NCBI GenBank assembly: GCA_964537315.1
Contig: CAZIAP010000001.1
Location: 121,149 to 185,148, forward strand
Direction: 5' to 3'
From: an uncultured Gammaproteobacteria bacterium
GTDB taxonomy: Bacteria; Patescibacteriota; Microgenomatia; Levybacterales; GWA1-39-11
Length of the DNA stretch: 64,000 bases
Below, in pieces: positions 1-63,546 of this stretch (its first letter is position 1; the number at the start of each line of letters is the position of its first letter). The notes beneath the pieces are model-generated. The model was not told where the DNA came from and searched no databases. It was given only the letters and a program-made list of their open reading frames with translations. A program made the translations under genes and the position numbers.

Positions 1-266
1 ACTTTAATAGTAATGTCTTCACCGTTTTTTCCGTGCATTTTTTTACCTTTTCCATCTTCTCCATCCTGTGCGCTGATCTCTTTTTTATACGTAAACTGAG
101 AAAGATCAGAGACATTATGAGTAGCGACAATATAAATGTCTCCTCCTTTCCCTCCGTTCCCTCCATCAGGTCCTCCTTTTGGGTTATGTCCAGCACGGAA
201 AAAATGTATGGATCCGTCTCCGCCTTTTCCAGCGGTAAGTGTAATTGTTACATCGTCTACTAACAT
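1..266 (-). CDS. obg: GTPase Obg, N-terminal part (5' end of the gene; it continues beyond the window start)
   Basis: Reverse-strand translation from the ATG (complement of 264-266) gives MLVDDVTITLTAGKGGDGSIHFFRAGHNPKGGPDGGNGGKGGDIYIVATHNVSDLSQFTYKKEISAQDGEDGKGKKMHGKNGEDITIK. This is the glycine-rich Obg-fold signature. The ORF track missed it because no stop lies in the window; the listed + ORF 33..263 is its antisense. Confidence 0.8.
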   Translation of the reverse strand, partial: MLVDDVTITLTAGKGGDGSIHFFRAGHNPKGGPDGGNGGKGGDIYIVATHNVSDLSQFTYKKEISAQDGEDGKGKKMHGKNGEDITIK

Positions 267-289
267 ATTAGTATTATATCAGTAATATT

Positions 290-1060
290 TTGTTATACTC
301 ATTTAATATGACGAGTGAGTTTACCCAGGAAGAGTTTGATCAACACCTGAATCGAGAGCATAGCCAATCTGCATTTTCTACCTACCTAAAAGAGATTGTC
401 TATGGTGGAGTCGACGGTATAGTCACTACCTTCGCTGTTGTTGCAGGTTTTACGGGAGCACAAAGTGGTGATAGTACTATCGCGTCAATCTCTGTTACTG
501 CAGTACTACTGTTCGGTTTTGCTAATTTATTTGCAGATGGTGTTTCGATGGGATTAGGTAATGTGCTTTCAGTTAGGGCGGATCAAGACGTATACAAGCA
601 GGAAAAAGAAAAAGAACGGCGTGAAATTAAGGCCAATAGAAAGTCCGAGATTGCAGAAACCGTGTTTATTTTAAAACAAAAAGGTTTTACACATAAACAG
701 GCAGTACAACTTGCAGAAGTTTATGCGACTAATGAAGAGTACTGGCTTGAGTTCATGATGAATCACGAGCTTGAGATGACTAATCCGGAGAGTGATAACC
801 CCGTCCTAACAGGTTTGTCTACTTTTATTTCATTTATAGTTTTTGGCGCAGTCCCGATTCTGCCTTACTTGATATTTAGAGACAACTCTGATGTTTTTCT
901 TGTCTCGGTAGTTGCCGCGTCTATAGCTTTAATATTACTAGGTGTTCTTCGATATCGAGTCACTAAAGAAAAAATTGCGCGTTCAGTTGGTGAAGTCGTT
1001 ATACTCGGGGGAATTTCTGCAACAATTGCTTATATAGTAGGTACCTTCTTCAGTGCATAG
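290..1060 (+). CDS. VIT1/CCC1 family iron/manganese transporter
   Basis: N-terminal GGVDGIVTTFAVVAG motif and C-terminal hydrophobic helices typical of the VIT family (PF01988). Confidence 0.7.
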   Translation: MLYSFNMTSEFTQEEFDQHLNREHSQSAFSTYLKEIVYGGVDGIVTTFAVVAGFTGAQSGDSTIASISVTAVLLFGFANLFADGVSMGLGNVLSVRADQDVYKQEKEKERREIKANRKSEIAETVFILKQKGFTHKQAVQLAEVYATNEEYWLEFMMNHELEMTNPESDNPVLTGLSTFISFIVFGAVPILPYLIFRDNSDVFLVSVVAASIALILLGVLRYRVTKEKIARSVGEVVILGGISATIAYIVGTFFSA

Positions 1061-1140: not shown

Positions 1141-1677
1141 ATGAAAGATAAACAAAATGTAAATAGGACAATTGAAGATAAAACAAATCAACAACACACA
1201 AGCAATTTTGGTAAACCACCAATTGGGCAAACTCCGCTTGATCCTACCGACAACGCTCAAGGAATGATGAACGATACAACCGGAATGACAGGTGTAAGTA
1301 AAGATGCGAACAATCCAAATACACCACCTCCTCAAGGCACAGAACCTGGTATTCGAACTTGGTCTGAGCATAAGTCAAAGTCAAATAGAGACGTTCCGAC
1401 ACAGAGCGAGGATTCAACTGTTCCAATATCTGAGTCTCCCGTTACTGCGACTCCAGGTAGTACTCCTACAGGTAATGAAACACTGGATGATGCTGCACCA
1501 CACACAGTTGGCGAACAAGGAGTAAATGCTACGAATCCTGATCCTGCTTCTGACGACGATACATTGGCAAATGCTCAGAATGTAGGATTGCGTTTAGATG
1601 AAGATGAAGAGCATCCGCAAGAGCTAGATATCGGAAGCGACATAGATAAAGCCGAAGAGTACCATCGAAATCACTAA
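1141..1677 (+). CDS. Hypothetical low-complexity (P/T/D/E-rich) protein
   Basis: 178-aa ORF with disordered composition and no recognisable motif. It fills the gap between flanking genes. Confidence 0.35.
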   Translation: MKDKQNVNRTIEDKTNQQHTSNFGKPPIGQTPLDPTDNAQGMMNDTTGMTGVSKDANNPNTPPPQGTEPGIRTWSEHKSKSNRDVPTQSEDSTVPISESPVTATPGSTPTGNETLDDAAPHTVGEQGVNATNPDPASDDDTLANAQNVGLRLDEDEEHPQELDIGSDIDKAEEYHRNH

Positions 1678-16990: not shown

Positions 16991-17149
16991 AGAAGTGTCT
17001 ATAGTTTATGGAGATATTGTAACAGATACGCAATAGCAGGTGTGATGTATATAATCTTACAAAATTTACAATTTTTGTTTGTTACAATAATCAGGAGTTT
17101 TGGGCTCACCTCGTCGGCAGGATTCCCTGCCTCGTTGAGGTGGGGATAT

Positions 17150-19249: not shown

Positions 19250-19516
19250 GTGATAGTATTAATTATGTACAAGGTATATATCTTGAAAAGTATCAGTAGG
19301 CCAGAGAAGTCATATGTTGGATATACAATTAAAAGAGTTCAGGATAGGTTACAAGAGCATAATGAGGGGCTTACTCAATCGACTAAAGCATATAGACCAT
19401 GGAAATTGTTATATTATGAGACATTTTATTGTAAACTTTGTGCTGAAAAAAGAGAGAAATTGCTTAAATCAGGCATTGGATTTAGATTTCGTAAAATGAT
19501 ACTAGAGAATTTTTGA
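19250..19516 (+). CDS. GIY-YIG nuclease superfamily protein (UPF0213/YazA-like)
   Basis: YKVYILKS...SYVGYT...RLQEHN is the GIY-YIG motif. 88 aa. Confidence 0.7.
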   Translation: MIVLIMYKVYILKSISRPEKSYVGYTIKRVQDRLQEHNEGLTQSTKAYRPWKLLYYETFYCKLCAEKREKLLKSGIGFRFRKMILENF

Positions 19517-19656: not shown

Positions 19657-19696
19657 CACGTTTGATTTCTGTAACTGATATAGTAAAATAAGGAAA

Positions 19697-31140: not shown

Positions 31141-31341
31141 ATGAAAGACTACAATTTTCCTGTATATGGCACCCAAGGTGGTGGACTTGCCAGGGAGGTA
31201 AACGGCACGTTTATCTTTGTCGAGAAGCCTGATGTGTCCGGGCTTGATGTCGGGGACGAAGTTCCCGAGATGTGGGGACTGATTCCAGCAAATGCACTCG
31301 CGCTGGATAAAGAGCGAGACGCAAGCTATTACGGCATCTAG
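31141..31341 (+). CDS. Hypothetical small protein in a locally GC-rich islet
   Basis: 66 aa with an AAAGGAG RBS. Its codon usage is visibly GC-richer than the surrounding genes. A GC-rich hairpin (GGGCGCGC...GCGCGCCC) follows. Confidence 0.4.
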   Translation: MKDYNFPVYGTQGGGLAREVNGTFIFVEKPDVSGLDVGDEVPEMWGLIPANALALDKERDASYYGI

Positions 31342-31522
31342 TCGAACACACTATAATTAATCTTGGCACTAATTGTGCCTCAGGGCGCGCAAGTAAGTCG
31401 GAAAAATCCGACCGAACGCGCGCCCATTTTCGACTATAAAGTGAAGAGATGATCGTAGTTTAGTAAGTTTTAATAGTATCGGTCCTTAGTTATTATTGTT
31501 CAGGAATAACAACCTATAGCAA

Positions 31523-50855: not shown

Positions 50856-51253
50856 GATGTGTATATTGTACTGTATGTATGCAAAAGGAATCAAGAAAGA
50901 TTAATTATTATGATATGATAAATGCGTCAAGAGAATTAATGAGATATACCTTAAAAATTATTCGACTAAGTTTAATAATCATCCTCTTTATTGTCGTAGT
51001 GTGGATGAATGCGACTCCAGGACACTTCAATACTGGAAATTGTGGATGTGAGTTGAACTATTCTCAAAAAGATTACTCTGAAATTATGATTTGTCCTCAG
51101 GTAGAATGCGAAGATTATCCAGTTATGATAGGTTCGCTGTTTCTAGTTCCGCTTTCATTTATAGACATCAATAGATGACATTGTCAGGATAAACTTCTCG
51201 TCCCGTTTGTTCTTCAAAAATATGGTGCTGCTTGTCCTGAGCATGCCGAAGTG

Positions 51254-51326
51254 TGAGCGACCAGGGACTCGAACCCTGAACCGATTCCTTAAGAGGGAAT
51301 TGCTCTACCGATTGAGCTAGTCGCCC
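51254..51326 (-). tRNA. tRNA-Lys (anticodon CTT); no encoded CCA
   Basis: Reverse complement: gggcgac-ta-gctc-aatcggta-gagc-a-attcc-ctCTTaa-ggaat-cggtt-caggg-ttcgagt-ccctg-gtcgctc-a. Confidence 0.8.
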
Positions 51327-51384
51327 TGCATGTGGAAAGACAACTAACGTTTTCTTTCCATCTTTCTTTCCTTTATTGTATCGC
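51327..51384 (-). promoter_or_regulatory. Conserved tRNA promoter/leader module preceding tRNA-Lys
   Basis: Minus strand: gcgatacaataaaggaaagaaagatGGAAAGaaaacgttagttgTCTTTCCacatgcag, then the tRNA. Same module as at tRNA-Gly and tRNA-Arg(TCT). Confidence 0.45.
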
Positions 51385-51419
51385 TTTGTAGCACATTTTC
51401 GTACCTATTTAATACTTTG

Positions 51420-51492
51420 CGCGCCCAGCAAGAGTCGAACTTGCAACCGTTGGTTCCGAAGACCAATGCTCTATCCATTAAGCTATGGGCGC
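51420..51492 (-). tRNA. tRNA-Arg (anticodon TCG); no encoded CCA
   Basis: Reverse complement: gcgccca-ta-gctt-aatggata-gagc-a-ttggt-ctTCGga-accaa-cggtt-gcaag-ttcgact-cttgc-tgggcgc-g. Confidence 0.8.
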
Positions 51493-51533
51493 AACTATAT
51501 ATTTCAAACGTCCAATCCGTCAACTGACGGATT

Positions 51534-51604
51534 CCGAAGACTAGTGCTCTATCCATTAACCCGCCTGCAGTGCAAGCTAGCTTTGCGGGCAGGGCTATGG
51601 GCGC
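51534..51604 (-). pseudogene. Truncated tRNA-Arg 5'-half paralog carrying a 35-nt palindromic insertion in the D-stem. It lies at the predicted transcription start, upstream of the intact tRNA-Arg(TCG).
   Basis: Reverse complement: gcgcccatag[ccctgcccgcaaagctagcttgcactgcaggcggg]ttaatggatagagcactagtcttcgga..., which is the acceptor, D-arm and anticodon-loop bases of tRNA-Arg. There is no pairing anticodon stem and no T-arm. A TTGATT-N17-TGgTAAAAT promoter lies just upstream on the minus strand. Confidence 0.5.
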
Positions 51605-51775
51605 AGAGTCATCAAATTTTACCAAAATTAGTACTCAGACACAATCAATGCAGATATAATACGAACTTATAGTATATTGATATGTGTGCTATAATACAGT
51701 GGAGACTTATTCGTACATTAACAGCTGCTCTACTATTGTCCTATATGCATTCATTTAGCGAAAGGTCGCATACCG

Positions 51776-52039
51776 GTGAGTAATATTGTTGTTCTGGATG
51801 TTCCGGATGAAATAAGAGAATATGTTTATGACCTTACACAGGCTCGGTCTGTCTCAAACGATGTACAATTATTTGTTAACATATCGAGCGATATTCCAAA
51901 TGAGGACATGACCGTCGAACTTTCTATTCCAAATAACGACTGTTCATTTGTCTCTATTTTTGACTGGAAAATCGTGTACGACCAAGAGATAGCTTTAGCA
52001 AGCAAGTCTGACGATGTTATGTACTACTTGAACATTTAG
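51776..52039 (+). CDS. Hypothetical protein (GTG start). There may be a frame shift into a downstream frame ending at 52146.
   Basis: 87-aa ORF. A protein-like -1 frame continues to a TAA at 52144-52146, immediately before the terminator. Confidence 0.3.
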   Translation: MSNIVVLDVPDEIREYVYDLTQARSVSNDVQLFVNISSDIPNEDMTVELSIPNNDCSFVSIFDWKIVYDQEIALASKSDDVMYYLNI

Positions 52040-52158
52040 ACAGTGGAAGAAGTCCGGAATTGGGCGATCTATCACCAGCAGAGGCTATCAGAGAAGAAAA
52101 TTTCGATAGCACATGGGCAGCTGCAAAAAACTTTGCAATAAACGGATAAGACTTTATG

Positions 52159-52190
52159 AAAGGGGAGGCTTTACACCTCCCCTCTTTTTG
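52159..52190 (+). terminator. Rho-independent terminator
   Basis: aaAGGGGAGGctttacacCTCCCCTctttttg. Confidence 0.75.
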
Positions 52191-52234
52191 TTAGTAACTA
52201 TCATCAATTTACTAACTTTTGGTATACTACAACC

Positions 52235-53173
52235 ATGCAAGCATATTTATCTATTGTTATTCCTATATATAACGAAGAAGAAAGTATAGAAGAGCTGGTT
52301 GACCAGATAGAATCAGCCGTCAAAAAGATGGAAAAGCCGTACGAGGTTATATTTGTAGATGATGGATCAACAGATAAAACGTTACCGATATTAAAGCGCC
52401 TTGAAAAAGATAAAACTTATATCAAAATCCTCTCTCACAGACGAAACTTAGGTAAGTCACATGCATTGATGCACGGATTTCACAAAGCCAAAGGTGAGTT
52501 TATTGCCACACTTGATGCAGATTTACAGGACGATCCTGAAGAAATTAACATATTACTCAATCACTTGATAGATAAAGACTTAGATATGGTCACCGGATGG
52601 CGTAGAAATAGGCAAGATACTAATGCAATAAAATCGGTTTCCAGAATCGCTAATCAGTTTGTGTTGCGATTATTTAAGCTCAATATTCACGATCTTAATG
52701 CCGGAATAAAAGTTTACCGATCAGATGCTGCAAAAGAACTAAATCTATACGGAGGACTACATAGATTTATCCCAATTATGCTTTCAGAATTAGGTTATAG
52801 GGTTGACGAGCACGAAGTACATAATCGGTCAAGGAAATTTGGGTACTCAAAGTATCGTGCATCTAAGGTACTCACGGACTTACCGGATCTTGCGACAATT
52901 TATTTCCTAACTAAGTTTACGCACAAGCCATTGCATTTCTTTGGGAGAATCGGGATGATCCCATTTTTAACTGGTACAGCGATTCTTGCATATCTATCAT
53001 TTTTAAGAATATTTTTAGATCAAGCGATTGGTACTCGTCCGCTACTTACATTTGGAGTCCTTATGGTTATTTTCGGTGCACAGTTAATATTAACTGGGTT
53101 ATTAGGTGACTTGATTGTTAACCTTCATTTTAAAGAAAAATCAAAACTCCCAATCAAGTATGAGTCGAAATAA
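52235..53173 (+). CDS. Family-2 glycosyltransferase, polyprenol-phosphate sugar synthase type (DPM1/GtrB/ArnC-like) with C-terminal TM helices
   Basis: LSIVIPIYNEEESI...VIFVDDGSTDKT...LDADLQDDPEE motifs, then two C-terminal TM segments. Confidence 0.8.
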   Translation: MQAYLSIVIPIYNEEESIEELVDQIESAVKKMEKPYEVIFVDDGSTDKTLPILKRLEKDKTYIKILSHRRNLGKSHALMHGFHKAKGEFIATLDADLQDDPEEINILLNHLIDKDLDMVTGWRRNRQDTNAIKSVSRIANQFVLRLFKLNIHDLNAGIKVYRSDAAKELNLYGGLHRFIPIMLSELGYRVDEHEVHNRSRKFGYSKYRASKVLTDLPDLATIYFLTKFTHKPLHFFGRIGMIPFLTGTAILAYLSFLRIFLDQAIGTRPLLTFGVLMVIFGAQLILTGLLGDLIVNLHFKEKSKLPIKYESK

Positions 53174-55517
53174 CCTTGTCTCTTCTGTTAAAAAAATTGT
53201 TCGTTTTTTACTAGGCGTACCTATTACAATCGCTGCATTTTATTTTATAGGAATGTTCCTCTGGAACGCCAGAGATGAAATTGAGTACTCACTAGCAAAT
53301 GCAAATTACACTTTGCTTTTAGTCGGAATATTGTTTTTTATACTCTTCTTCTTCCTAAAAAATATTATTTGGATTAGAATTCTCAAAAATCTAGGTGCAA
53401 AAGATATTGATACTACAAAGAGTTTTTTTCTGCTCTCCTTCTCAGAGACAAAAAGGTATATTCCCGGTAGTATATTTGCCTATGCTGCAAGAGTAAAGTC
53501 ATATAATGATGCTAATATTCCGTCTAAACTTCTAGTTAAATCGCTCATTATTGATTCCTTATTGCTTGTTATCCCTAGTCTAATTATTAGTATTCCGGGA
53601 ATATTGTTTATTTTTCCGCGCCTCCAACAGCAGTTCCCTGAATACTCTCAATATATTTTACCAGCAACTATTGGTATTTTTGCATTTTCAATGTTAGCGG
53701 TGGTTGCAGCAATTGTACTCGCAAAAAAGAAACTAGGAGTAAGGTCAATTAATATAAGAGATGTCGTAAATAAATATGGAGATCTTTTCTTTTTGTCGTG
53801 CTTATCATGGTTTTTCTTCGGACTTGCCAACTACTTAGTAGCAAGTTCTATTCATGTGCTTGATCCTAAATATATTCTGCAGTTTGCTTCATTTTTTGTC
53901 CTATCTTGGTTTATTGGATATATAAGTATTGTAACTCCGATGGGTCTTGGGGTACGTGAAGGTATAATGATTTTAGGACTTGCTCCCTTCGCTCCACTTT
54001 CAGTAACTTCACTAATTGCGCTTTTTTCAAGGATTAGTTTTATGGCAGGTGAGTTTTTATTTTTGCTGGTAAGTTTTATATTATTCAAAAGTAAGTATCT
54101 ACAAAAATGGTGGAAGTTTGCTGAAAAACATGCGCATGCTGTAATTTTATGGATAGGAATTGTTAGCTATATTATTTATTTTTCCTATGTATCAATTGTT
54201 AAGTATTTGAACTTTTTTATGGGAAAGTTTGATCTTGGCAACATGGATCAGACTGTCTGGAATACCCTCCATGGGCGGATTTTTATGTTTACCAATCCAG
54301 ACAGTACAGAAAATATCAGTAGACTTGCATTTCATGCTGATTTTATTTTGATACTACTGTCACCACTTTATCTAATATGGTCAGATCCAAGAATGCTCTT
54401 AATCCTGCAAACCGTTGTACTTGGGTTAGGTGCATATTTTGTATATAAAATAGGACAACACATACTGAAAGATAATACGATTTCACTAATATTCGCGTAT
54501 GCGTTTCTACTAAATCCACTTGTGCAAAAACAAAATTTGTATGATTTCCATGCGGTCGTATTGGCCACTACTTTTTTGCTTGCAGTATGGTATTTTTTCA
54601 TCAAAAAGAACTTGGTATGGATGACGGTATTTCTCATATTGGCGGTACTTACCAAGGAGAATATTTACTTAATTACTGCAATATTTGGTATATTTCTGAT
54701 AACTCGAAAACATTTTAAACTAGGAAGCATTATTACGATTGTATCTATCACTACTTTTATTTTGCTCATGAAGACTTTTATACCTGAAGCACGTGGTGGC
54801 GAACACTTTGCTGTATCCTTTTTATCAGAGTTTGGAGATAGCTTTGGTGCTGCTGCGATTACAATAATCACAAATCCCATTCAAACAATTCAGGTATTTT
54901 TCGAACATAATGGATTGAGATATCTTAACATGCTTCTGCTTCCATTAGGATATCTGCCTTTTGCTTCACCTTTGTATTTATTATTTGCTGCTCCTGATAT
55001 TGCAAAAAATACACTAGCAGATAACCCCAATTTCAGATCATCATTCTATCAGTATAACGCAGAGATTTTACCGTTTCTCTTTATTTCTTCAATATACGGT
55101 GTTTCATTGCTCATGAAATATTTCCCAAAAAAAATGTTAGTGTATTATATTTTAATTTTTTCTCTAATAGGCACTTGGCTCCACGGGGCTCTACCGTTTG
55201 GTAAATCTCCGTACGTTTCTATATATACTAACCCACGCAGTGATGCTGATCAGATACGAAAGTTTATAGCCGAGATAGATGAAGGAAAAAGTGTTGCTGC
55301 TACCAATAACCTAGGATCACATCTTTCGCGGCGAGAAAACATTTATGTACTTCCAAGAGGGATAAACGAGGCAGACATGATCTTGTTACTAACTGGAGAT
55401 TGGTATGAGTCCAGAGATAATCAGCTTAAACTTATTGAAGATTTACACGCTGATCCTAACTTCAAATTATACTATCAAACGGGTAATTTCTACGGATTTG
55501 AAAGAGTAAAAAAATAA
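53160..55517 (+). CDS. Large polytopic membrane protein: UPF0104 flippase-like (MprF-TM-like) domain fused to a DUF2079-like (GT-C-like) domain
   Basis: Start placed at MSRNNLV, a 14-nt overlap with the GT2 gene. The N-terminal region has the ...IVTPMGLGVREGIMILGL motif of the UPF0104/flippase-like family. The C-terminal ~450 aa are multi-TM with a DUF2079-like pattern. Confidence 0.55.
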   Translation: MSRNNLVSSVKKIVRFLLGVPITIAAFYFIGMFLWNARDEIEYSLANANYTLLLVGILFFILFFFLKNIIWIRILKNLGAKDIDTTKSFFLLSFSETKRYIPGSIFAYAARVKSYNDANIPSKLLVKSLIIDSLLLVIPSLIISIPGILFIFPRLQQQFPEYSQYILPATIGIFAFSMLAVVAAIVLAKKKLGVRSINIRDVVNKYGDLFFLSCLSWFFFGLANYLVASSIHVLDPKYILQFASFFVLSWFIGYISIVTPMGLGVREGIMILGLAPFAPLSVTSLIALFSRISFMAGEFLFLLVSFILFKSKYLQKWWKFAEKHAHAVILWIGIVSYIIYFSYVSIVKYLNFFMGKFDLGNMDQTVWNTLHGRIFMFTNPDSTENISRLAFHADFILILLSPLYLIWSDPRMLLILQTVVLGLGAYFVYKIGQHILKDNTISLIFAYAFLLNPLVQKQNLYDFHAVVLATTFLLAVWYFFIKKNLVWMTVFLILAVLTKENIYLITAIFGIFLITRKHFKLGSIITIVSITTFILLMKTFIPEARGGEHFAVSFLSEFGDSFGAAAITIITNPIQTIQVFFEHNGLRYLNMLLLPLGYLPFASPLYLLFAAPDIAKNTLADNPNFRSSFYQYNAEILPFLFISSIYGVSLLMKYFPKKMLVYYILIFSLIGTWLHGALPFGKSPYVSIYTNPRSDADQIRKFIAEIDEGKSVAATNNLGSHLSRRENIYVLPRGINEADMILLLTGDWYESRDNQLKLIEDLHADPNFKLYYQTGNFYGFERVKK

Positions 55518-55542
55518 TAGAGGCTCAGTTATAAACTATTTT

Positions 55543-56901
55543 CTACTTTCTAACTAATTTATAATCTTTGGGAAAGTACAGAAACGAAGCAGGAACATCA
55601 TCTAGTAGATACTTTTGAAACTCGCTATAAATATTGACTCTTTCCTGAGTATCAGTCTCAATTCTACCATCTTCAAGAAGTTTATCTATACGTAAATTTT
55701 TATACTTTCCAATATTATTAACTTGGTCTGAATGCCAAAACGTGTACTGGTCAGGGTCTTTTGGCAAACGGTATTTATACAGTAATACCTGAAAAGTAGG
55801 GGGAACATCTTCACGTACAACAATCTTTGTGTTTATTCCGATTTCTTTCCAGTTTGCTGCAATAACTTTTGCAGTACTCTCCAGTTCAGCAGGTGTGGTA
55901 ATCTCTAGCTCAATGTCTGAAGGTAAATCGCTGCTTACAAGTAACTCATTCGCAATCTCTTTATCAGTGATTTCGGCACTAGGATTACTTGCGAAATAAA
56001 TGCTGTTTGGAGGTATAGGTGAAAAAGCTCTTTCACCAAACTCAAACGATGGAGGAAGTGCGTAATTTAATGCTTGTCTGTACTTTTTATTTGAGAGGTT
56101 GCTATCTGTATTGTTATAAAAAAGTGTGACTAGCTCATTATAGTTTACTGTTTCTTCTATGCTTGTATTTGACCACTTCGCAAGATTCATTTGATCAATT
56201 TCAAGTGTATTCACTCCTGAAATAATATCGACCTCACCTAGCATATATGCTGTTTTTAAAGATGCCTGTGTTGGATAAAAATAAATTAGTTTTTTATGTA
56301 GCCTATCGTTTCTATCTTGTAAGACTAGTGATTTTACAAAACCCGCATTAAGCTCTACTTTACTTAATTTATATCTTCCAAGCCCTGAAAAGTCTTGAAG
56401 CAATATGGGCTTAGATACAACGCTTAAAAACGGCGTATAGGGTGCAGAAAGTGTAAATGAAACAGTATAAGGATCAATGATAGTTTTTTTTGCGTCTTTA
56501 AAATTTAAATTGAGCGATTGAGCATTAAATGTTTCACCATTATGAAACTTCAACCCCTTTTTGAGATAAAAGACGTATTCCTTACCATCTTGTTTTACTT
56601 CCCATCTTTCGACTGCAGCGGGTGTTATTTCTCCTCTTTCAGACACATTGGTAAGCCCGTAACTAACATCGGATATTATTGAGTTTGGCAGACCGTCAGG
56701 ATCATAAACTCCTAGGACTCCTACACGCTGTATTTTGTTGTCTACTGATGGTCGTATATAAAAGTTAAGAAAAGCAATACCTGCGACACTAATTATTATG
56801 CCTATGATAATTGAAGTGAAAATTGTACGCTTCCAGCGTTTGAAGTATGCTTTAAAAAGCCAAAAATAGTATCTTTTTCGAAGTTGTGCCATAGTGGACA
56901 A
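55543..56901 (-). CDS. Membrane-anchored solute-binding protein family 5 (peptide/nickel-binding)-like protein
   Basis: N-terminal TM anchor, then GLKFHNGETFNAQSL and DPYTVSFTL segments typical of SBP_bac_5. No adjacent permease genes. Confidence 0.5.
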   Translation of the reverse strand: MSTMAQLRKRYYFWLFKAYFKRWKRTIFTSIIIGIIISVAGIAFLNFYIRPSVDNKIQRVGVLGVYDPDGLPNSIISDVSYGLTNVSERGEITPAAVERWEVKQDGKEYVFYLKKGLKFHNGETFNAQSLNLNFKDAKKTIIDPYTVSFTLSAPYTPFLSVVSKPILLQDFSGLGRYKLSKVELNAGFVKSLVLQDRNDRLHKKLIYFYPTQASLKTAYMLGEVDIISGVNTLEIDQMNLAKWSNTSIEETVNYNELVTLFYNNTDSNLSNKKYRQALNYALPPSFEFGERAFSPIPPNSIYFASNPSAEITDKEIANELLVSSDLPSDIELEITTPAELESTAKVIAANWKEIGINTKIVVREDVPPTFQVLLYKYRLPKDPDQYTFWHSDQVNNIGKYKNLRIDKLLEDGRIETDTQERVNIYSEFQKYLLDDVPASFLYFPKDYKLVRK

Positions 56902-56908
56902 TTACACG

Positions 56909-57124
56909 CTACGCAAGTATGAGACGTAAAATTGAGAGGGCTGCAAATAGTGCTGCAAGTATAATTGTTGCATAAAACAAGAATTTTTCAACCCCTTTTT
57001 TGCTGCGGTAAGTTTCTGCACCTCCACCGAAAGCTATTCCTACGCTTGTTCCTCGTGTCTGCATTAAGACAGATACCATGAGCAGGATACAAACAATGAT
57101 ATGCGCTATTGTAATTACTGTCAT
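56909..57124 (-). CDS. secG: Preprotein translocase subunit SecG
   Basis: 71 aa: TM helix, LMQTRGTSVGIAFGGGAE glycine-rich loop, then a second TM helix. Confidence 0.7.
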   Translation of the reverse strand: MTVITIAHIIVCILLMVSVLMQTRGTSVGIAFGGGAETYRSKKGVEKFLFYATIILAALFAALSILRLILA

Positions 57125-57132
57125 AAAAACCT

Positions 57133-57531
57133 CTAAATCAGATCAAATACCCATTCAAGAACCTTTACAATCAAGGCTATTATAACAGATATTACTATGT
57201 ATGACAAAAGGTTTCCTACATGAATATTTTGACCTATGAGATGCTGAGTTTCAAAAACAAATGAAGATATTCTAACGAATCCAAACAGCACTGCAACTAC
57301 ATATAAACCAATGATATTAGATAAGATTATTACTATGATTCCACTCAAAAATGCAAAAGGAAAAACAAAAATACTAAGTAATGGACGCAGTATTGCGGTA
57401 GATATTACGAAAGTCACTGCTGCGAAAATATAGTTTAAGTAATTACCGGAAACAGTGAGGCCAGGAGCAATGAGAACTGTGGCATAAAATGCAATCGCTG
57501 TAATCAATATAGATCTAAAGAATGATTTCAT
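57133..57531 (-). CDS. Phage holin family IV (DUF360/YvlD-like) membrane protein
   Basis: ...APGLTVSGNYLNYIFAAVTFVISTAILRPLLSIFVFPFAFLSGIIVIIL matches the PF04020 pattern. 4 TM helices. Confidence 0.6.
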   Translation of the reverse strand: MKSFFRSILITAIAFYATVLIAPGLTVSGNYLNYIFAAVTFVISTAILRPLLSIFVFPFAFLSGIIVIILSNIIGLYVVAVLFGFVRISSFVFETQHLIGQNIHVGNLLSYIVISVIIALIVKVLEWVFDLI

Positions 57532-57600
57532 AGTTAGTAGTTTAATTATAGAATGAAAAAGGTTAATCAGGCAAATGCTGAATAATTGAGGAAAATGTTA

Positions 57601-58911
57601 TTACTTTGTAAATTCCAGCATTGCTTTTTTTCTAAGTAACCTGTGGTAGGTAACCGCAAATCTATGAGCTTCATCTCTAATTCTGCGAAGTAAGTTAATA
57701 CCCGGTGTTTCTTTAGGTAGCTTTATCTCTTCAAACTCATATTTATTTCCATATGTTGGTACTGGTAGCACAATAATCTCCTCTCTCTTTGCCAGCCCGA
57801 TAAGGGGTATATCTATACTCGCGCTAGAAAGTGCTCCCATAGCAGCACTTACTTGTCCTTTTCCTCCGTCTATCACAAATAGGTCAGGTAATGGCCAATC
57901 ATTGTTTAGTCTACGCCTCAACATCTCATTCATCATGAAAAAATCATCCGGTGTAGACTTGGCTTTTATCTTAAATCTTCGGTAATCTTTTTTTGAGACA
58001 TCGCCGTTTATTAATACCACCATAGAACCGGTAGCCTGCTTGCCTTGTATATTTGAAATGTCATAGCACTCTATTCTCTCCAGTTTGGTTACACGAGGAT
58101 CGTGAGCCTGAAGTATCTTGACTAAAGAGTCTACTTCTTTAATAATCCGATCAAAATATAAATCCGGTTTCTGTGCATACTCAAAAGGTGAATAATGCTC
58201 GCTAGTGATTAGCTCTATTGCTTCAATTTGTTTTTGTATTTTTGCTGCTATTTCAAACTCTTCATGTTTAACTGCATCATTTTGCTCAGCCTTAAGAGTT
58301 TTCATTAATGTTTGTTGTTTACCACTTAAGAATTGTTTGATTTTTTTAATGTCTTGTTTGTATCTAATAAAGTTATCAGGTCGTGCAGGTATACACGGGC
58401 AAAGTCCAAGATGGTTGTATAAACAAGTTCTTTTAGGGTGGTTTATTACAGACTGATATGGAAATATCCGACGAAGAAGCTTTAAAATAATTTTCACATC
58501 TCCAATGTTAGTATAAGGACCGAAGTACGAAGACCCGTCCTTGACTACTTTTCTGGTAATCGTAACGTAAGGAGCGATTTTTTTATCACCTTTGTAAACT
58601 TTAATATAAGGATATGATTTGTCATCTAGTAGCTGGATATTATAAAACGGCTGATGCTTCTTAACTAGTACCGCCTCAAGCAAAAATGCCTCAACTTCTG
58701 ACCCTACTTGAATATAATCAATTGACTTAATATCACCAACAAGTTTAATTGTTTTTGCATCTAACGCAGTTTTTGAAAAATAAGATGAAACACGCTTTTT
58801 AAGGTTTTTGGCTTTGCCAACATAAATAACCTTATTTTGCGCGTTTTTGTATATATATACGCCGGGTGATTCCGGCAATGATAAGTAGGCTGATGAGTCC
58901 AATTGTTCCAA
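57601..58911 (-). CDS. uvrC: Excinuclease ABC subunit C (short form lacking the C-terminal HhH region)
   Basis: GIY-YIG (PGVYIYKNAQNKVIYVGKAKNLKKRVSSYF), a UvrB-interacting region and an RNase H-like endonuclease domain (DISNIQG...DGGKGQ). 436 aa, ending before any helix-hairpin-helix motif. Confidence 0.85.
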   Translation of the reverse strand: MEQLDSSAYLSLPESPGVYIYKNAQNKVIYVGKAKNLKKRVSSYFSKTALDAKTIKLVGDIKSIDYIQVGSEVEAFLLEAVLVKKHQPFYNIQLLDDKSYPYIKVYKGDKKIAPYVTITRKVVKDGSSYFGPYTNIGDVKIILKLLRRIFPYQSVINHPKRTCLYNHLGLCPCIPARPDNFIRYKQDIKKIKQFLSGKQQTLMKTLKAEQNDAVKHEEFEIAAKIQKQIEAIELITSEHYSPFEYAQKPDLYFDRIIKEVDSLVKILQAHDPRVTKLERIECYDISNIQGKQATGSMVVLINGDVSKKDYRRFKIKAKSTPDDFFMMNEMLRRRLNNDWPLPDLFVIDGGKGQVSAAMGALSSASIDIPLIGLAKREEIIVLPVPTYGNKYEFEEIKLPKETPGINLLRRIRDEAHRFAVTYHRLLRKKAMLEFTK

Positions 58912-60658
58912 TACCTCCGATTATTAGTGAGTTCTGATGTGGAAATACACCTACCTGAATGTTTTGCGTGTCGGTGTACCCTTCAAAAGTGATTTTAATA
59001 GGGAACGTACGATTTGTCAAAAATGGAACATGTTCAAATGCAAGCGGTACAGCAACTTTTCCATACGGTGGTAGCACATCAATCACAAATTCATTCTGAC
59101 GTAGTGGAATGTCAGACTCTATAGTAACCGACTTGTTATAAAGCGCGGTGTTTCCAGTATTTTGGATTAGAACATGCCCTTTGATGGGAAAAACAGAAAG
59201 CGCGTAAGACGGAAGCGAAGTTTTAAGACTTACAAAAGATTTCTTCTCAAAATTCGATTTATCAGTGAAATCTATCCGTACATCTTTTGAATCAACTGTA
59301 AATTTATATCCGCCTGCTGGGACAGGATAGTTACTATCCAGCCCCTTTTTAACAAATGCGATATGGTCAAAATCAAATACCTCAAAATAGTCTGATCCCC
59401 CTGTGGTATTTCCCCAAGTAGGATCGACCATTATCCAGGTTCTTTTCTTTTCATCATAGTACTCTGGCCATGCATGGAGCACATCCTTAATTAGAGATAA
59501 AGGCCGTAGTTTGTCGTTCTCAGTATGCGCGTACCCTTCAATTGATCGAGCAGGTATTCCTTTACTTCTTGCGAGCGCAACGAACAGATCAGTAAACTCA
59601 AGGCACACTGCGTTAGATGGGTTTTTTAAGGCTTCCTTTGCTCCAATCCTATCATTATCTCCTGTTACTTTATCGTAGTTATATGAAAGTGTACTAACTA
59701 CATATTCATAAATGTCTTGTGCAGTATTCAAGTTTTTTGCAGCCTCACGTACTTCTTTACTATTTAGTTCCCAGTAAGGTTGAGTTACTAGATATTTTTT
59801 TCTGTCTTCTGCAGTAAGAATTTCAGGCTTAGGTGTGTGGAGAAGTCTGACCATACCAGTTACATGTATCGTTCTTTTTTGCTGTGAAGAAAGGTTAAAC
59901 TCTGCGAGCCAATTGCCATCTTTATCTTGATATACATCTGCTGGAGCAGGGTCAATTTTATTGATAATTACATCTTGATAGTTGGTTGAGGGAGGAAGCG
60001 CAATCTCAGTTTTAATAGGAAATAAATTAGAGTTTGTAATGTGATAATCGAGGTCAAACGAATAGTACTGCTCGCTTCCAAACACTACAAAAATACCTGC
60101 TTCTCCGATTTCCTCTTTTTCAAAAGTTATTATATTGTTGTCATACTGATAAATTTTTTTGGGCTTTATTATTGTGGGAGTACCAAAGGATGTGGGAACA
60201 TGAAGTGAAAGCGTATATTTTTCAAACTCTGAAATATTGCGTACTCCCGGAACTCCGATTTCCAAAATTGATCCATTTTTGTGAGCTATTTCTTTTGAAG
60301 TAAAGCTTACAGTAAAAGTGTTTTGTCTATTGAGTCCGACGACTCTGTCTTGGAACTTAATATCAATTTTTTTTCCATCTTCCTGATCTTCAACCGTAAA
60401 TGGAATTGCTCCGCCTGGACCTAATACAGAGATATTGCTCACATCACTATACCCAATAGTCATCCCGTAGGAGGGAGTGTAATAGTACTCTGTATTATTT
60501 GTTATAGTAATCCTCTGTGTTACGTATGTAGTAGTATCTTCCTGAATAGAAAACGTTGAGGCAGAAGATATGGAAAAAGTATCATCTGCTGCATGGACTG
60601 TGATAGGAACAAAAGCGAATATGAAAGATAAAAACAACGTAGAAATTAAATTTCTCAT
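58832..60658 (-). CDS. Secreted/membrane-anchored transglutaminase-like cysteine protease domain protein
   Basis: Signal peptide. Core Cys (NAVCLEFTDLFVALARSKGIPAR), His (HAWPEYY) and Asp (WIMVDPTWGN) motifs of the transglutaminase-like superfamily. C-terminal TM helix. Overlaps uvrA by 4 nt and the annotated uvrC start by 80 nt. Confidence 0.7.
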   Translation of the reverse strand: MRNLISTLFLSFIFAFVPITVHAADDTFSISSASTFSIQEDTTTYVTQRITITNNTEYYYTPSYGMTIGYSDVSNISVLGPGGAIPFTVEDQEDGKKIDIKFQDRVVGLNRQNTFTVSFTSKEIAHKNGSILEIGVPGVRNISEFEKYTLSLHVPTSFGTPTIIKPKKIYQYDNNIITFEKEEIGEAGIFVVFGSEQYYSFDLDYHITNSNLFPIKTEIALPPSTNYQDVIINKIDPAPADVYQDKDGNWLAEFNLSSQQKRTIHVTGMVRLLHTPKPEILTAEDRKKYLVTQPYWELNSKEVREAAKNLNTAQDIYEYVVSTLSYNYDKVTGDNDRIGAKEALKNPSNAVCLEFTDLFVALARSKGIPARSIEGYAHTENDKLRPLSLIKDVLHAWPEYYDEKKRTWIMVDPTWGNTTGGSDYFEVFDFDHIAFVKKGLDSNYPVPAGGYKFTVDSKDVRIDFTDKSNFEKKSFVSLKTSLPSYALSVFPIKGHVLIQNTGNTALYNKSVTIESDIPLRQNEFVIDVLPPYGKVAVPLAFEHVPFLTNRTFPIKITFEGYTDTQNIQVGVFPHQNSLIIGGIGTIGLISLLIIAGITRRIYIQKRAK

Positions 60659-63546
60659 GCAATACCGAGTTCTCGAGCTAAATATCTTCCGGTATGTGAC
60701 TCTTTATTACGCGCAATCTCATGTGGAGTTCCGACAGCGATTATCTGTCCGCCGCCTTCTCCACCTTCTGGTCCAAGATCAATAATATGATCTGCGTTCT
60801 TGATCACATCCAGATTATGCTCAATTACTATTATAGTATTACCTTTTTCGACCAGTTTACGCAATACCGCAATCAATTTTTGAAGATCAGCAAAGTGCAA
60901 CCCCGTAGTCGGCTCATCTAATAGATATAGACTTTGTCCCTGTCCTTTTTTAGACAATTCCGCAGCCAACTTAATTCGCTGTGCCTCTCCTCCTGAAAGA
61001 GTTGGAGCTGGTTGTCCAAGTCTTACATAAGACAGTCCTACTTCCATAATAGTTGATAGTTTGTTTGATAGACCTTCATGAAAAGAAAAGAAAGCTGCTG
61101 CCTCACTGACCGTCATATTTAAAACATCAGCAATATTTTTACCCTCGAACTGAACCTCCAATGTATCTTGTGTAAATCTTGTTCCGTTACACACTTCACA
61201 CTCAATATACACGTCAGGCAAAAATTGCATCTCAATCTTAATCTGCCCTTCTCCCTCACAGTTTTCGCATCGTCCTCCACGGACATTAAATGAAAATCTA
61301 CCAGGTCCATATCCACGTAGACGCGCTTCGCGAGTATTTGCAAAAATATCCCGAATATATGAATATGCGCCAGTGTACGTGGCCGGATTACTGCGAGGAG
61401 TACGACCAATTGGAGACTGGTCAATCATGTATACTCGTTTCAGATGCTCATACCCTGATATGCTCTGAAATTTACCAGGTCTTTGCCGATGAAACACGTT
61501 TTTTTCTTGAGCAATTGCGTGATATAGCACATCATTGATTAATGTAGATTTTCCACTTCCTGAGACGCCTGTTACACAGATAAGCTTTCCCAGAGGAAAT
61601 TCAGCAGATACGTTTTTAAGATTGTGTTCCTGGACACCTTGTATTCTAAGTGTCAGTCCTTCATGTGGATTTTCACTGTCTTTGCTTCGTTTTACTACAA
61701 TTTTTTTCTTTCCGGAGAGATAAGGACCTGTTACAGACTCTTCGCTTTCCATAATCTCTTGTGGAGTTCCACTAGCTACTATAGATCCTCCAAACTCGCC
61801 TGCTTTAGGACCGATATCAAAAATGTAATCAGACTCCTCCATCATTTCTTTGTCGTGTTCGACTACTACCACACTATTTCCCAAATCTCTGAGACGCTTG
61901 AGGGTACTAATAAGTTTAGTATTGTCACGTGGATGAAGTCCTATGGATGGTTCGTCCAAAACATACAGTACTCCGGATAATCCGCTTCCGATTTGGGAAG
62001 CAAGTCTAATACGCTGGGCCTCTCCACCAGCTAATGTATGCGCGCTTCGGGATAAAGTTAGGTAAGAAAGTCCCACGTTGTTTAAAAACTTAAGTCGTAC
62101 TAATATTTCACGAAGTATCATTCGTGATATTTCGTTTTCCTTTTTGTTTAACACCTCAGGCAATCCATCAACAAATTTTTCTGTCGCTTCTATACTCATA
62201 GTGCTTACTTCAGAGATACTTTTTTGATTTACTGTGACAGACAGTGCTTCTTTTTTTAGTCTTGCGCCATTACAAATTTCACATATCTTAGGAGTCATGT
62301 ATTTCTCAATCTCTTTTTTAATGAGTTCAGAATCTGATTCTGTGTACCTGTTGAGTAGGTAATTTACGACACCCGGATAGCTCTCATAAATCTTAGTTGG
62401 TTCACCAAACCTATTTTTTCCTTTTACTTCGTACAGCCTGTCTCCTGTTCCATAGAGTAATAACTCCTTCTGTTCAGGAGATAGATGCTTAATTAACAAG
62501 TCCATGGGAACATTGTTATCTTCTAATGCGGTACGTACAGTTCGACCAAACCATGTCTCTTTGTCATATATATTGGATAGTGCAAGTATTCCACCTTCTG
62601 CGATGGTTAGTTCTGGATTCAAAACTAACCCTTCATCAATATCATGTCTGATACCAAGTCCATTACAGCGCGGACATGCGCCATAAGGAGAGTTAAATGA
62701 GAATAAACGAGGCTCTATTTCTTCAAATGCAATACCACACTCAGGACAGGCGAATTTTTGAGAGTACAGCGTGTCTTCCATCTCAGTTGGCTTATCAGGA
62801 AAACTAAACGACTCATCAGATACTTTGGAGATGATCACTTCTCCGTTTCCGAGGTTTAACCCTTGCTCAACTGACTCAACAAGACGTTGACGGTCATAGT
62901 CTTTAGAAAGCGTTACACGGTCTATTATTGCGTCAATTGTGTGTTTGTTTGTTTTAATTAACACAAGATCTTCGTCAAGTGAGTAAACTCGTCCGTCAAT
63001 TCTTACACGTTGGAAACCTCTTTTTTTTAGATCACGAAAGAGATCAGTGTACTCTCCTCGTCTACCTTTTACTATCGGGGCAAGAATCATAATACGTGTT
63101 GGAGTAATTCCAATAAATTTAGTAATAATCTCTTCGACGACTTGTTCCTTAGTAATCCTCGATATCTCTCTGCCACAATTTGGACAATGTGGGTGACCTA
63201 TGCGCGCGTATAAAAGTCGCATATAGTCATAAATCTCAGTCACGGTTCCAACTGTTGAGCGTGGGTTGTGCGAGGTGCTCTTTTGGTCAATTGAAATGGC
63301 TGGAGATAATCCTTCAATAAGGTCAACATCAGGCTTTTTCATGACACCCAAAAACTGACGCGCATATGAAGAAAGAGACTCAACATATCTTCTTTGACCC
63401 TCTGCGTAAATTGTGTCAAACGCAAGTGAGCTTTTACCACTCCCTGACAAACCTGTAAAAACAACTATTTTATACTTTGGAATCTCAAGGTCTATGTTTT
63501 TGAGGTTATGCTCTCGTGCGCCTTTTATAACTATTTTATCAATCAT
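60655..63546 (-). CDS. uvrA: Excinuclease ABC subunit A
   Basis: Two ABC cassettes ([11 protein letters not shown] and [10 protein letters not shown] Walker A; LSGGE signature motifs twice) plus the Zn-finger CxxC pairs typical of UvrA. 963 aa. Confidence 0.95.

Follow-up and report, generated by a model that had tools for sequence, protein, structure and literature searches.

Split tRNA genes are known from Nanoarchaeum equitans. Remnants of tRNA genes are also left behind when one allele is replaced by another, including replacement through homology-facilitated illegitimate recombination, and RNA genes can be entered by small palindromic insertion elements such as the REP/BIME sequences, the Rickettsia palindromic elements and the GC clusters of AT-rich mitochondrial genomes. 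To our knowledge, bacteria have no pathway for the joining of tRNA halves. A further source of tRNA gene fragments is integration by tyrosine integrases, for which anticodon-centred sites are common (PMC4383910). Fragments of the 5' part, which the initial annotation of the locus described here considered unusual for integrases, are indeed rare but known, with 159 of the 3919 islands in Islander (about 4%) having one (PMC4383910).

The present locus contains a stub of a tRNA-Arg(TCG) gene. It lies within a 64-kb stretch of DNA with a G+C content of 36-38%, the whole of which was analysed and is referred to as the window. Two alleles of tRNA-Arg(TCG) have to be distinguished: allele A is the type found at the orthologous locus L045, and allele B' is the intact gene of the window. 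The locus is made up of the following features.

51612..51648, minus strand: promoter of the native tRNA-Arg, its function assigned from conservation
51594..51604, minus strand: nt 1-11 of tRNA-Arg(TCG) allele A (acceptor 5' strand, nt 8-9 and D-stem bases 1-2), an exact second copy of GCGCCCATAGC
51560..51593, minus strand: imperfect GC-rich palindrome of 34 nt, CCTGCCCGCAAAGCTAGCTTGCACTGCAGGCGGG, between tRNA nt 11 and 12, absent from the L045-48 orthologue
51532..51559, minus strand: nt 12-39 of tRNA-Arg(TCG) allele A, TTAATGGATAGAGCACTAGTCTTCGGAA, agreeing with L045 at 28/28 positions and with the intact gene of the window at 26/28
51514..51533, no strand: perfect 9+2+9 palindrome AATCCGTCA-GT-TGACGGATT, which begins exactly where the tRNA similarity stops
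51493..51513, minus strand: last 21 nt of the 39-nt spacer, which together with the preceding palindrome hold a promoter-like TTGACG-N18-TATAGT
51419..51492, minus strand: intact tRNA-Arg(TCG), allele B', found by ARAGORN and by the Rfam tRNA model (69.6 bits), presumably functional
51327..51418, minus strand: Arg-Lys spacer of 92 nt with a shared tRNA leader module, 90.5% identical to L050
51253..51326, minus strand: tRNA-Lys(CTT), found by ARAGORN and Rfam

Like the split genes of N. equitans, the stub is driven by a promoter, comprises a 5' half up to just beyond the anticodon loop and is continued by structured sequence. However, it is found in a bacterium, its D-stem is interrupted, the window holds no 3' half, and the distance to a complete gene with this anticodon is 39 nt. 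With the small palindromic elements it has in common a short, imperfect GC-rich palindrome that entered a structural RNA gene of an AT-rich genome cleanly and without target duplication, but here the palindrome is a single copy in 64 kb, resembles the palindromes of relatives weakly, and no family is established for it. The integrase-generated fragments of Islander at the anticodon-loop 'A' sites are likewise partial copies in direct orientation beside an intact gene, ending at the anticodon loop. In the present case, the intact gene is not a hybrid of host and element sequences sharing a block of identity; it is wholly another allele, in both strands of the anticodon stem as well as in the T-arm. 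There is neither an island nor an integrase, and the gap is only 39 nt, in keeping with the statement of the initial annotation that this is not the standard footprint of an integrase. Remnants of allele replacement also combine a resident relic with an incoming functional copy, one non-homologous junction and little decay, although here a perfect palindrome occupies the junction and the relic keeps its promoter, probably serving as the leader of the new gene. The stub belongs to a known kind, the tRNA gene remnants: it is a gene-replacement scar and not a new kind of gene.

Structure of the Stub

The first 39 nucleotides of tRNA-Arg(TCG) are reproduced in two segments on the minus strand, nt 1-11 at 51604..51594 and nt 12-39 at 51559..51532. 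The sequence GCGCCCATAGC has exactly two copies in the window, at 51604..51594 and 51492..51482 (both minus strand), and the 28-mer TTAATGGATAGAGCA.T.GTCTTCGGAA also has two, one in the intact gene and one at 51559..51532 with two mismatches; the number expected from shuffled sequences is zero in both cases. A Logan contig assembled independently from SRR7082976 agrees with the window throughout 51280..63173 and spans the entire structure of stub, palindrome, spacer and intact gene. The stub with its palindrome is a real structure, not a product of chance.

The second segment contributes the remaining D-arm, the 5' strand of the anticodon stem (CTAGT), the anticodon loop (CTTCGGA) and nt 39, where the similarity to tRNA-Arg ends. 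As had been described initially, what follows contains neither a strand to pair with the anticodon stem nor a T-arm, and an acceptor 3' strand was not found after nt 39 either. In its standard, intron and low-score modes ARAGORN identified no tRNA in the stub, with or without the 34-nt palindrome, and the Rfam model RF00005 gave no match to it at E<=10. A functional or intron-containing tRNA is thereby ruled out, and the stub no longer encodes a tRNA. The palindrome itself does not qualify as a tRNA intron: it is 34 nt long, it interrupts the sequence at nt 11/12 rather than at the canonical position 37/38 or in the anticodon loop, and it has no intron match in Rfam. The intron reading also fails because the 'gene' that would host it lacks its 3' half as well.

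The initial annotation correctly recognized a truncated 5' part of tRNA-Arg with a palindromic GC-rich insertion in the D-stem; the insertion, placed between nt 11 and 12, measures 34 nt instead of the 35 nt given there. Compared with L045-48 it is a clean insertion with flanks that match at 100%. No target-site duplication is seen (ATAGC/CCTG...CGGG/TTAATGG in the window against ATAGC/TTAATGG in L045, slashes marking the ends of the insert), and a MITE mobilized by a transposase was rejected on this ground. The palindrome, with a hairpin energy of -18.5 kcal/mol, is present once in the window at up to 3 mismatches. It resembles other GC-rich palindromes at tRNA genes of relatives weakly (P=0.04 for L002, and P=0.38), and a family of GC-rich palindromes that would include it (L002, L030, the tRNA-Ala leader) is not supported, the similarity being weak or non-significant. 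GC-rich hairpins were few overall in the searches.

The perfect 9-bp hairpin reported before is confirmed as a 9+2+9 palindrome at 51533..51514. It overlaps the segment of nt 12-39 by 2 nt, and the intact tRNA-Arg starts 21 nt after it, not 16 nt as had been claimed. Three perfect 9+2+9 palindromes were seen in 64 kb, with about 3 expected across the whole window. The location of this one at the breakpoint suggests a non-random mechanism, an element end or a recombinase site being examples. The junction palindrome was not found in IMG/VR. Neither the palindrome nor the 39-nt spacer has more similarity to tRNA 3' halves than expected by chance, and the idea that the spacer is a decayed 3' half was given up for this reason. 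The spacer also bears no similarity to the spacers of relatives, and a derivation of spacer or palindrome from the X element of L049 and L061 (see below) found no similarity in its favour. A BLAST search of the locus against a phage database returned only generic tRNA matches.

The Orthologous Locus in Related Genomes

The named homologues of a nearby family-2 glycosyltransferase (GT, 52235..53173) belong to Candidatus Levybacteria or to the Patescibacteria group, which identifies the host as a CPR bacterium and, by these homologies, as a Candidatus Levybacteria. Scans of genome collections and metagenomes, together with contigs, yielded 12 related versions of the locus, given here as L numbers. 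The nearest relative is L045-48, represented by four independent assemblies, with a GT that is 88% identical at the protein level. Positions 51594..52042 of the window, comprising an upstream ORF and the promoter, align to L045 426..873 with 84% nucleotide identity over 449 nt. In L045-48 the same promoter runs straight into an intact tRNA-Arg of allele A, GCGCCCATAGCTTAATGGATAGAGCACTAGTCTTCGGAACTAGGGGTTGGGGGTTCGACTCCCTCTGGGCGCG, and the stub is identical to its nt 1-39 at every one of the 39 positions. Nucleotides 1-11 of the stub abut the promoter leader just as they do in L045.

An ordinary intact tRNA-Arg follows the promoter in L019/L028/L057, L056, L060, L052/53, L050 and L054/55 as well. 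Taken with L045-48, these loci show a single tRNA-Arg without a stub, which is the very observation that the initial annotation had named as speaking against its reading. Comparison among the relatives marks the stub structure as lineage-specific and the version in the window as unique.

The neighbouring genes 7TM_transglut, ATPgrasp_ST, GT2 and DUF2079 are syntenic in relatives. The unit of promoter, tRNA-Arg and tRNA-Lys is inverted relative to GT in L002, L050 and L052/53 when compared with the window, L045, L049, L019 and L054-57, and between 7TM_transglut and GT2, which are conserved, different genes have been inserted (shikimate kinase, unknown ORFs). This interval is a rearrangement hot spot. 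A homologue search with a small ORF at 50879..51178, tried as a synteny anchor, returned only the ORF itself. The Logan contigs of two runs of the host organism (L001, L017) break inside tRNA-Lys at about position 51280 of the window, and in the relative L002 the contig end (L002 position 1) falls within tRNA-Arg; these are probably graph breaks at sequence common to co-occurring strains.

Two Alleles of tRNA-Arg(TCG)

The stub had been taken for a duplication of the neighbouring gene. This does not hold: the stub differs from the intact tRNA-Arg of the window at nt 27 and 29, and at both positions it has the bases of the L045 orthologue. Because the intact gene carries compensating bases for these positions, the stub was not copied from its neighbour. 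The two alleles differ at 11 of 73 positions (B' of the window against A of L045), through compensated changes in the anticodon stem (TTGGT/ACCAA in B', CTAGT/ACTAG in A) and in the T-stem (GCAAG/CTTGC in B', GGGGG/CCCTC in A) and through one base of the variable loop. The same differences at compensated positions led us to drop a staggered-cut duplication of CRISPR-like or casposase-like character, with a repeat and an insert of 39 nt each. By these comparisons, the neighbour is a separate allele and the stub a relic of the native gene.

The absence of any change in the 39 nt of the stub, despite a flank identity of 84%, has a probability of 0.84^39, or about 0.001, which would mean that the old gene was intact and under selection until recently relative to the split between the window and L045. 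The B' gene, on the other hand, differs from the tRNA-Arg of L061 at just 2 of 73 positions, although the GT of L061 is only 80% identical and L061 is a more distant relative. A B-like allele stands directly behind the promoter in L060, L019, L028 and L057, and in the neighbour-joining tree of GT the A-like and B-like alleles are mixed over both clades. The tRNA-Lys of these genomes differs at 1-3 of 74 positions, L049 excepted. Such a mixture of alleles next to a nearly constant tRNA-Lys points, as the simplest reading, to tRNA-Arg(TCG) alleles that have been replaced here again and again among close Levybacteria. The window would show one of these replacements, in which the 5' part of the old gene stayed behind.

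Promoter and Transcription

The promoter consists of an extended -10 element, TGgTAAAAT, at 51624..51616 on the minus strand (TG at 51624..51623, TAAAAT at 51621..51616), followed by a leader of 11 nt. A promoter 14-mer, TTGGTAAAATTTGA at 51625..51612 (minus strand), is found with at most 2 mismatches 7-46 nt upstream of tRNA-Arg(TCG) in L019, L028, L045-48, L049, L050, L052-57 and L061; the form in L060, TTGATAAAATCTGT, is more diverged. Within the window the 14-mer is not a general motif. Its conservation in front of tRNA-Arg(TCG) in relatives argues that the promoter is real. The extended -10 element of the initial annotation is thus retained, but not its -35 element, since TTGATT (51648..51643) is separated from TAAAAT by 21 nt and is not canonical; the promoter classes as one of the extended -10 type. 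Transcription from this promoter, whose core is conserved in every relative examined, is expected to start about 5 nt before the stub, so the earlier placement of the stub next to the transcription start was accurate.

A promoter scan detected a second site in the spacer, TTGACG (51523..51518)-N18-TATAGT (51499..51494), with a 10/12 match. Its -35 element lies inside the junction palindrome and its -10 element ends 1 nt before nt 1 of the tRNA. With the -10 element abutting the gene, transcription would start inside the tRNA, and the site is probably not the promoter of the tRNA. It resembles an operator-overlapped promoter brought in with incoming DNA. A terminator scan from the promoter to the intact gene (51493-51620, minus strand) found none; the hairpins were rejected as intrinsic terminators because they have no U-tract, the next letters being UUAAUGG and GGACGUU. 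As no terminator intervenes and the only promoter-like site of the spacer would start inside the tRNA, transcription of the intact gene probably begins at the old promoter, which would make the stub a leader of about 110-115 nt. Judging from this arrangement, the stub is most likely an inert 5' leader that RNase P removes.

The tRNA-Lys seems to be served by a promoter and leader module of its own, and the single tRNA-Arg/tRNA-Lys transcription unit assumed in the initial annotation is not established. The module in front of tRNA-Lys consists of the -10-like GCGATACAATA (51384..51374), the SD-like AAGGAAAG, the mini-ORF ATGGAAAGAAAACGTTAG and a hairpin that abuts tRNA-Lys, all on the minus strand. 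It is one instance of a shared module of about 60 nt that was found at 51333..51400 (-), 19690..19730 (+), 19810..19876 (+) and 28900..28963 (+), upstream of tRNA-Lys, tRNA-Gly and tRNA-Arg(TCT) and after tRNA-Pro. The mini-ORF reads ATG GAR ARA AAA CGT TAG (MERKR*/MEKKR*), and the hairpin, GGAGA...TCTCC, lies at the tRNA 5' end. The module also occurs in L050, L052 and L054, at times twice; L054 keeps the hairpin but not the ORF.

Origin of the Stub

We consider it fairly probable that the stub is a non-functional relic of the original tRNA-Arg(TCG) gene of this lineage, still attached to its promoter, and that the gene was replaced by B' through a local rearrangement and was separately interrupted by a palindrome. 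The stub has the orthologous position, the orthologous promoter and the sequence of the orthologue (39/39). A local rearrangement would have joined the 39-nt spacer and the complete B' gene to nt 39/40 of the old gene, whose 3' half would have been lost in the process. This most likely happened by recombination with DNA of a related Levybacterium that carried B', through homology on the tRNA-Lys side and by illegitimate joining at the anticodon loop, while in a separate event the 34-nt imperfect palindrome would have entered between nt 11 and 12; we infer both the joining mechanism and the order of events. The stub would now be transcribed in front of B' as the leader of its precursor, from which RNase P would remove it. 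Several observations count against the relic reading or sit uneasily with it. The right-hand junction of the rearrangement could not be placed, a perfect palindrome at the exact breakpoint is not accounted for by simple illegitimate joining, and no donor of B' and the 39-nt spacer was found. Stubs are also present in L049 and L061, and the phenomenon could therefore be more systematic than an accident.

Integration offers another route to the same arrangement. An element may have integrated at the anticodon loop by site-specific recombination, displaced the native 5' part of the gene and rebuilt the gene with a 5' part of its own, leaving a scar of the rare 5' fragment type after its deletion down to 39 nt. 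The geometry is one accepted by Islander, with the 5' fragment on the upstream side of the intact tDNA, in direct orientation and ending at nt 39 by the anticodon loop, and the perfect palindrome at the junction would fit such a history, as would another att-like scar, an 18-nt copy of the tRNA-Gly 3' end behind a conserved 38-nt motif that is also present at the tRNA-Lys of L049. Integration predicts, however, that the native A-type 3' half is still in place, and the strand observed is ACCAA, which pairs with B' and not with the CTAGT of the stub, next to a T-stem of B type. The allele-A 3' half CTAGGGGTTGGGGGTTCGACTCCCTCTGGGCGCG was not found within the 64-kb window, nor was an island with either a displaced A-type 3' half or a copy of the tRNA-Lys 3' end at its boundary. 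No integrase is encoded among the called genes of the 64 kb, only 39 nt separate stub and gene, and the flanks are syntenic. On balance an integrative element is an unlikely source of the stub.

A further history can be envisaged in which an ancestral tandem pair (A followed by B) shared one promoter, the lineages each lost one copy, and the A copy lost its 3' half here by deletion. Both allele types do occur in both clades, the window keeps remains of both, and the L045 contig ends 362 nt after allele A and so leaves room for a B copy downstream. But two intact copies were seen in 0 of the 12 related loci, and the 39-nt spacer resembles neither a tRNA 3' half nor the spacer of any relative. 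Moreover, B' is nearly identical between distant genomes and yet differs from the A of the sister lineage at 11 of 73 positions, for which transfer is a better fit than long coexistence, and we hold a tandem ancestor to be improbable. Lastly, a chimeric assembly of reads from two strains, one with allele A and one with B', might be suspected given that two alleles circulate in related populations and that contigs break inside tRNA-Lys (L001, L017) and tRNA-Arg (L002). The agreement with the independent Logan contig over stub, palindrome, spacer and intact gene makes such an artefact very improbable indeed, and a chimera of two tRNA alleles would not have produced the unique palindrome and the 39-nt spacer.

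Recurrent Stubs and the Predicted Folding of the Leader

The loci L049 and L061 also have a stub behind the tRNA-Arg promoter. There, nt 1-19 of tRNA-Arg are followed by an element of 130-150 nt, termed X, and then by a complete tRNA-Arg, which is of type A' in L049 and of type B' in L061.

L049 2920..2771 and L061 214..86, minus strand: X element, after tRNA-Arg nt 1-19

The order within X is ACGGACTGAT, a hairpin (TTCCAATAAtTTATTGGAA or CCGCCaagGCGG), a core AGATGGAGTTCACTTGCAAGC...AGACAAGTGTGG and a second hairpin, up to the full tRNA-Arg. Its 40-nt core is almost invariant between genomes with GT genes about 70% identical at the DNA level, and the hairpin has an entirely different sequence in L049 and L061 with the pairing kept. 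X can also be read as an ORF of 30-34 codons (MEFTCK...DKCG), but its pattern of substitutions does not resemble that of coding sequence. Rfam gave no match for X (nothing beyond the tRNAs in L049 and L061), and two X motifs were not found in IMG/VR. As judged from these loci, 5' stubs arose at least twice independently at the tRNA-Arg promoter.

Equilibrium folding of the precursor of the window predicts the correct acceptor stem with a probability of 0.88 in the presence of the 34-nt palindrome and of 0.20 in its absence. When the palindrome is deleted in silico, the acceptor strand of the stub captures the 3' strand with a probability of 0.79, and a probability of 0.8 for the correct stem is attained by only 2-3% of 34-nt inserts with shuffled or random sequence. 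It is a possibility that the palindrome has been retained because it neutralizes the mispairing of the stub with the real tRNA. For L049 and L061, the strand of the stub is predicted to win the acceptor pairing outright.

These predictions allow a functional reading. The stub of the window would be one form of a class of pre-tRNA-Arg leaders specific to Levybacteria, in which the acceptor 5' strand left in the stub serves as a decoy, competing with the genuine one for the 3' strand of the tRNA, and the structure of the leader, be it the palindrome or X, decides whether the RNase P substrate folds and thereby gates the maturation of tRNA-Arg. Both the effect of the palindrome on the predicted fold, rarely equalled by the control inserts, and the predicted success of the stub strand in L049 and L061 speak for it. 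So do the invariant core and pairing-preserving hairpin of X and the repeated origin of stubs at one promoter. Still, most relatives have no stub and the version in the window is unique; the calculations describe thermodynamic equilibrium alone, and folding during transcription favours local pairs. X is represented by just two sequences, too few for covariation statistics. Such a leader class is unlikely.

Other tRNA-Associated Elements

Several further elements lie close to tRNA genes in the window and in its relatives. The 3' end of tRNA-Gly recurs as an exact 18-nt copy at 20044..20061 (+), 94 nt downstream of tRNA-Gly (region 19950..20061). The copy is preceded by the motif GTTCGCGCCGCTACgaaGTAGCtAGTACCCTTGGGGTGA, which is also found before a copy of the tRNA-Lys 3' end in L049 (2505..2390, minus strand). 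The motif on the tRNA-Gly side was not found in Rfam or IMG/VR. In layout, this 3' scar resembles the attR end of an integrative element that targeted the T-loop and has shrunk to about 110 nt, or else a miniature element.

A small GIY-YIG (YhbQ-like) ORF at 19250..19516 (+) lies 68 nt upstream of tRNA-Pro, and a homologue with 42% identity is found in L045 at about 340..85 (-), directly downstream of tRNA-Arg, where tRNA-Lys would be expected. A mobile nuclease gene tied to tRNA loci is one possibility raised by these positions.

GC-rich or palindromic structures are present at other tRNAs: a GC-rich hairpin directly 5' of tRNA-Ala in the window at 17102..17149 (+), a 45-nt palindrome that abuts the 5' end of tRNA-Lys in L002 at 100..152 (+) and is absent there in all other relatives, and a 68-nt palindrome after a tRNA in L030 at about 1142..1225, absent in its relative L033. 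A strong GC-rich hairpin, GGGCGCGC...GCGCGCCC followed by ATTTTC, at 31383..31425 (+), comes after a 66-codon ORF (31141..31341) downstream of tRNA-His and is probably an intrinsic terminator.

Implications

For annotation, the locus carries a warning: the 5' part of a tRNA gene close to a promoter need not mean a duplication or the footprint of an integrase. For Levybacteria, it indicates that tRNA-Arg(TCG) has been replaced repeatedly at one locus next to a tRNA-Lys that hardly changes, with at least two independent events leaving 5' stubs. The recurrent turnover at this locus, the unexplained palindrome at the junction and the X element add to its interest. The leader class set out above, should it exist together with fast turnover of tRNA-Arg(TCG) alleles, would mean that tRNA maturation is regulated or driven by conflict. 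If the stubs, the palindrome and X do affect the folding of the precursor, they would form a simple natural system for the control of tRNA maturation by a leader in CPR bacteria.
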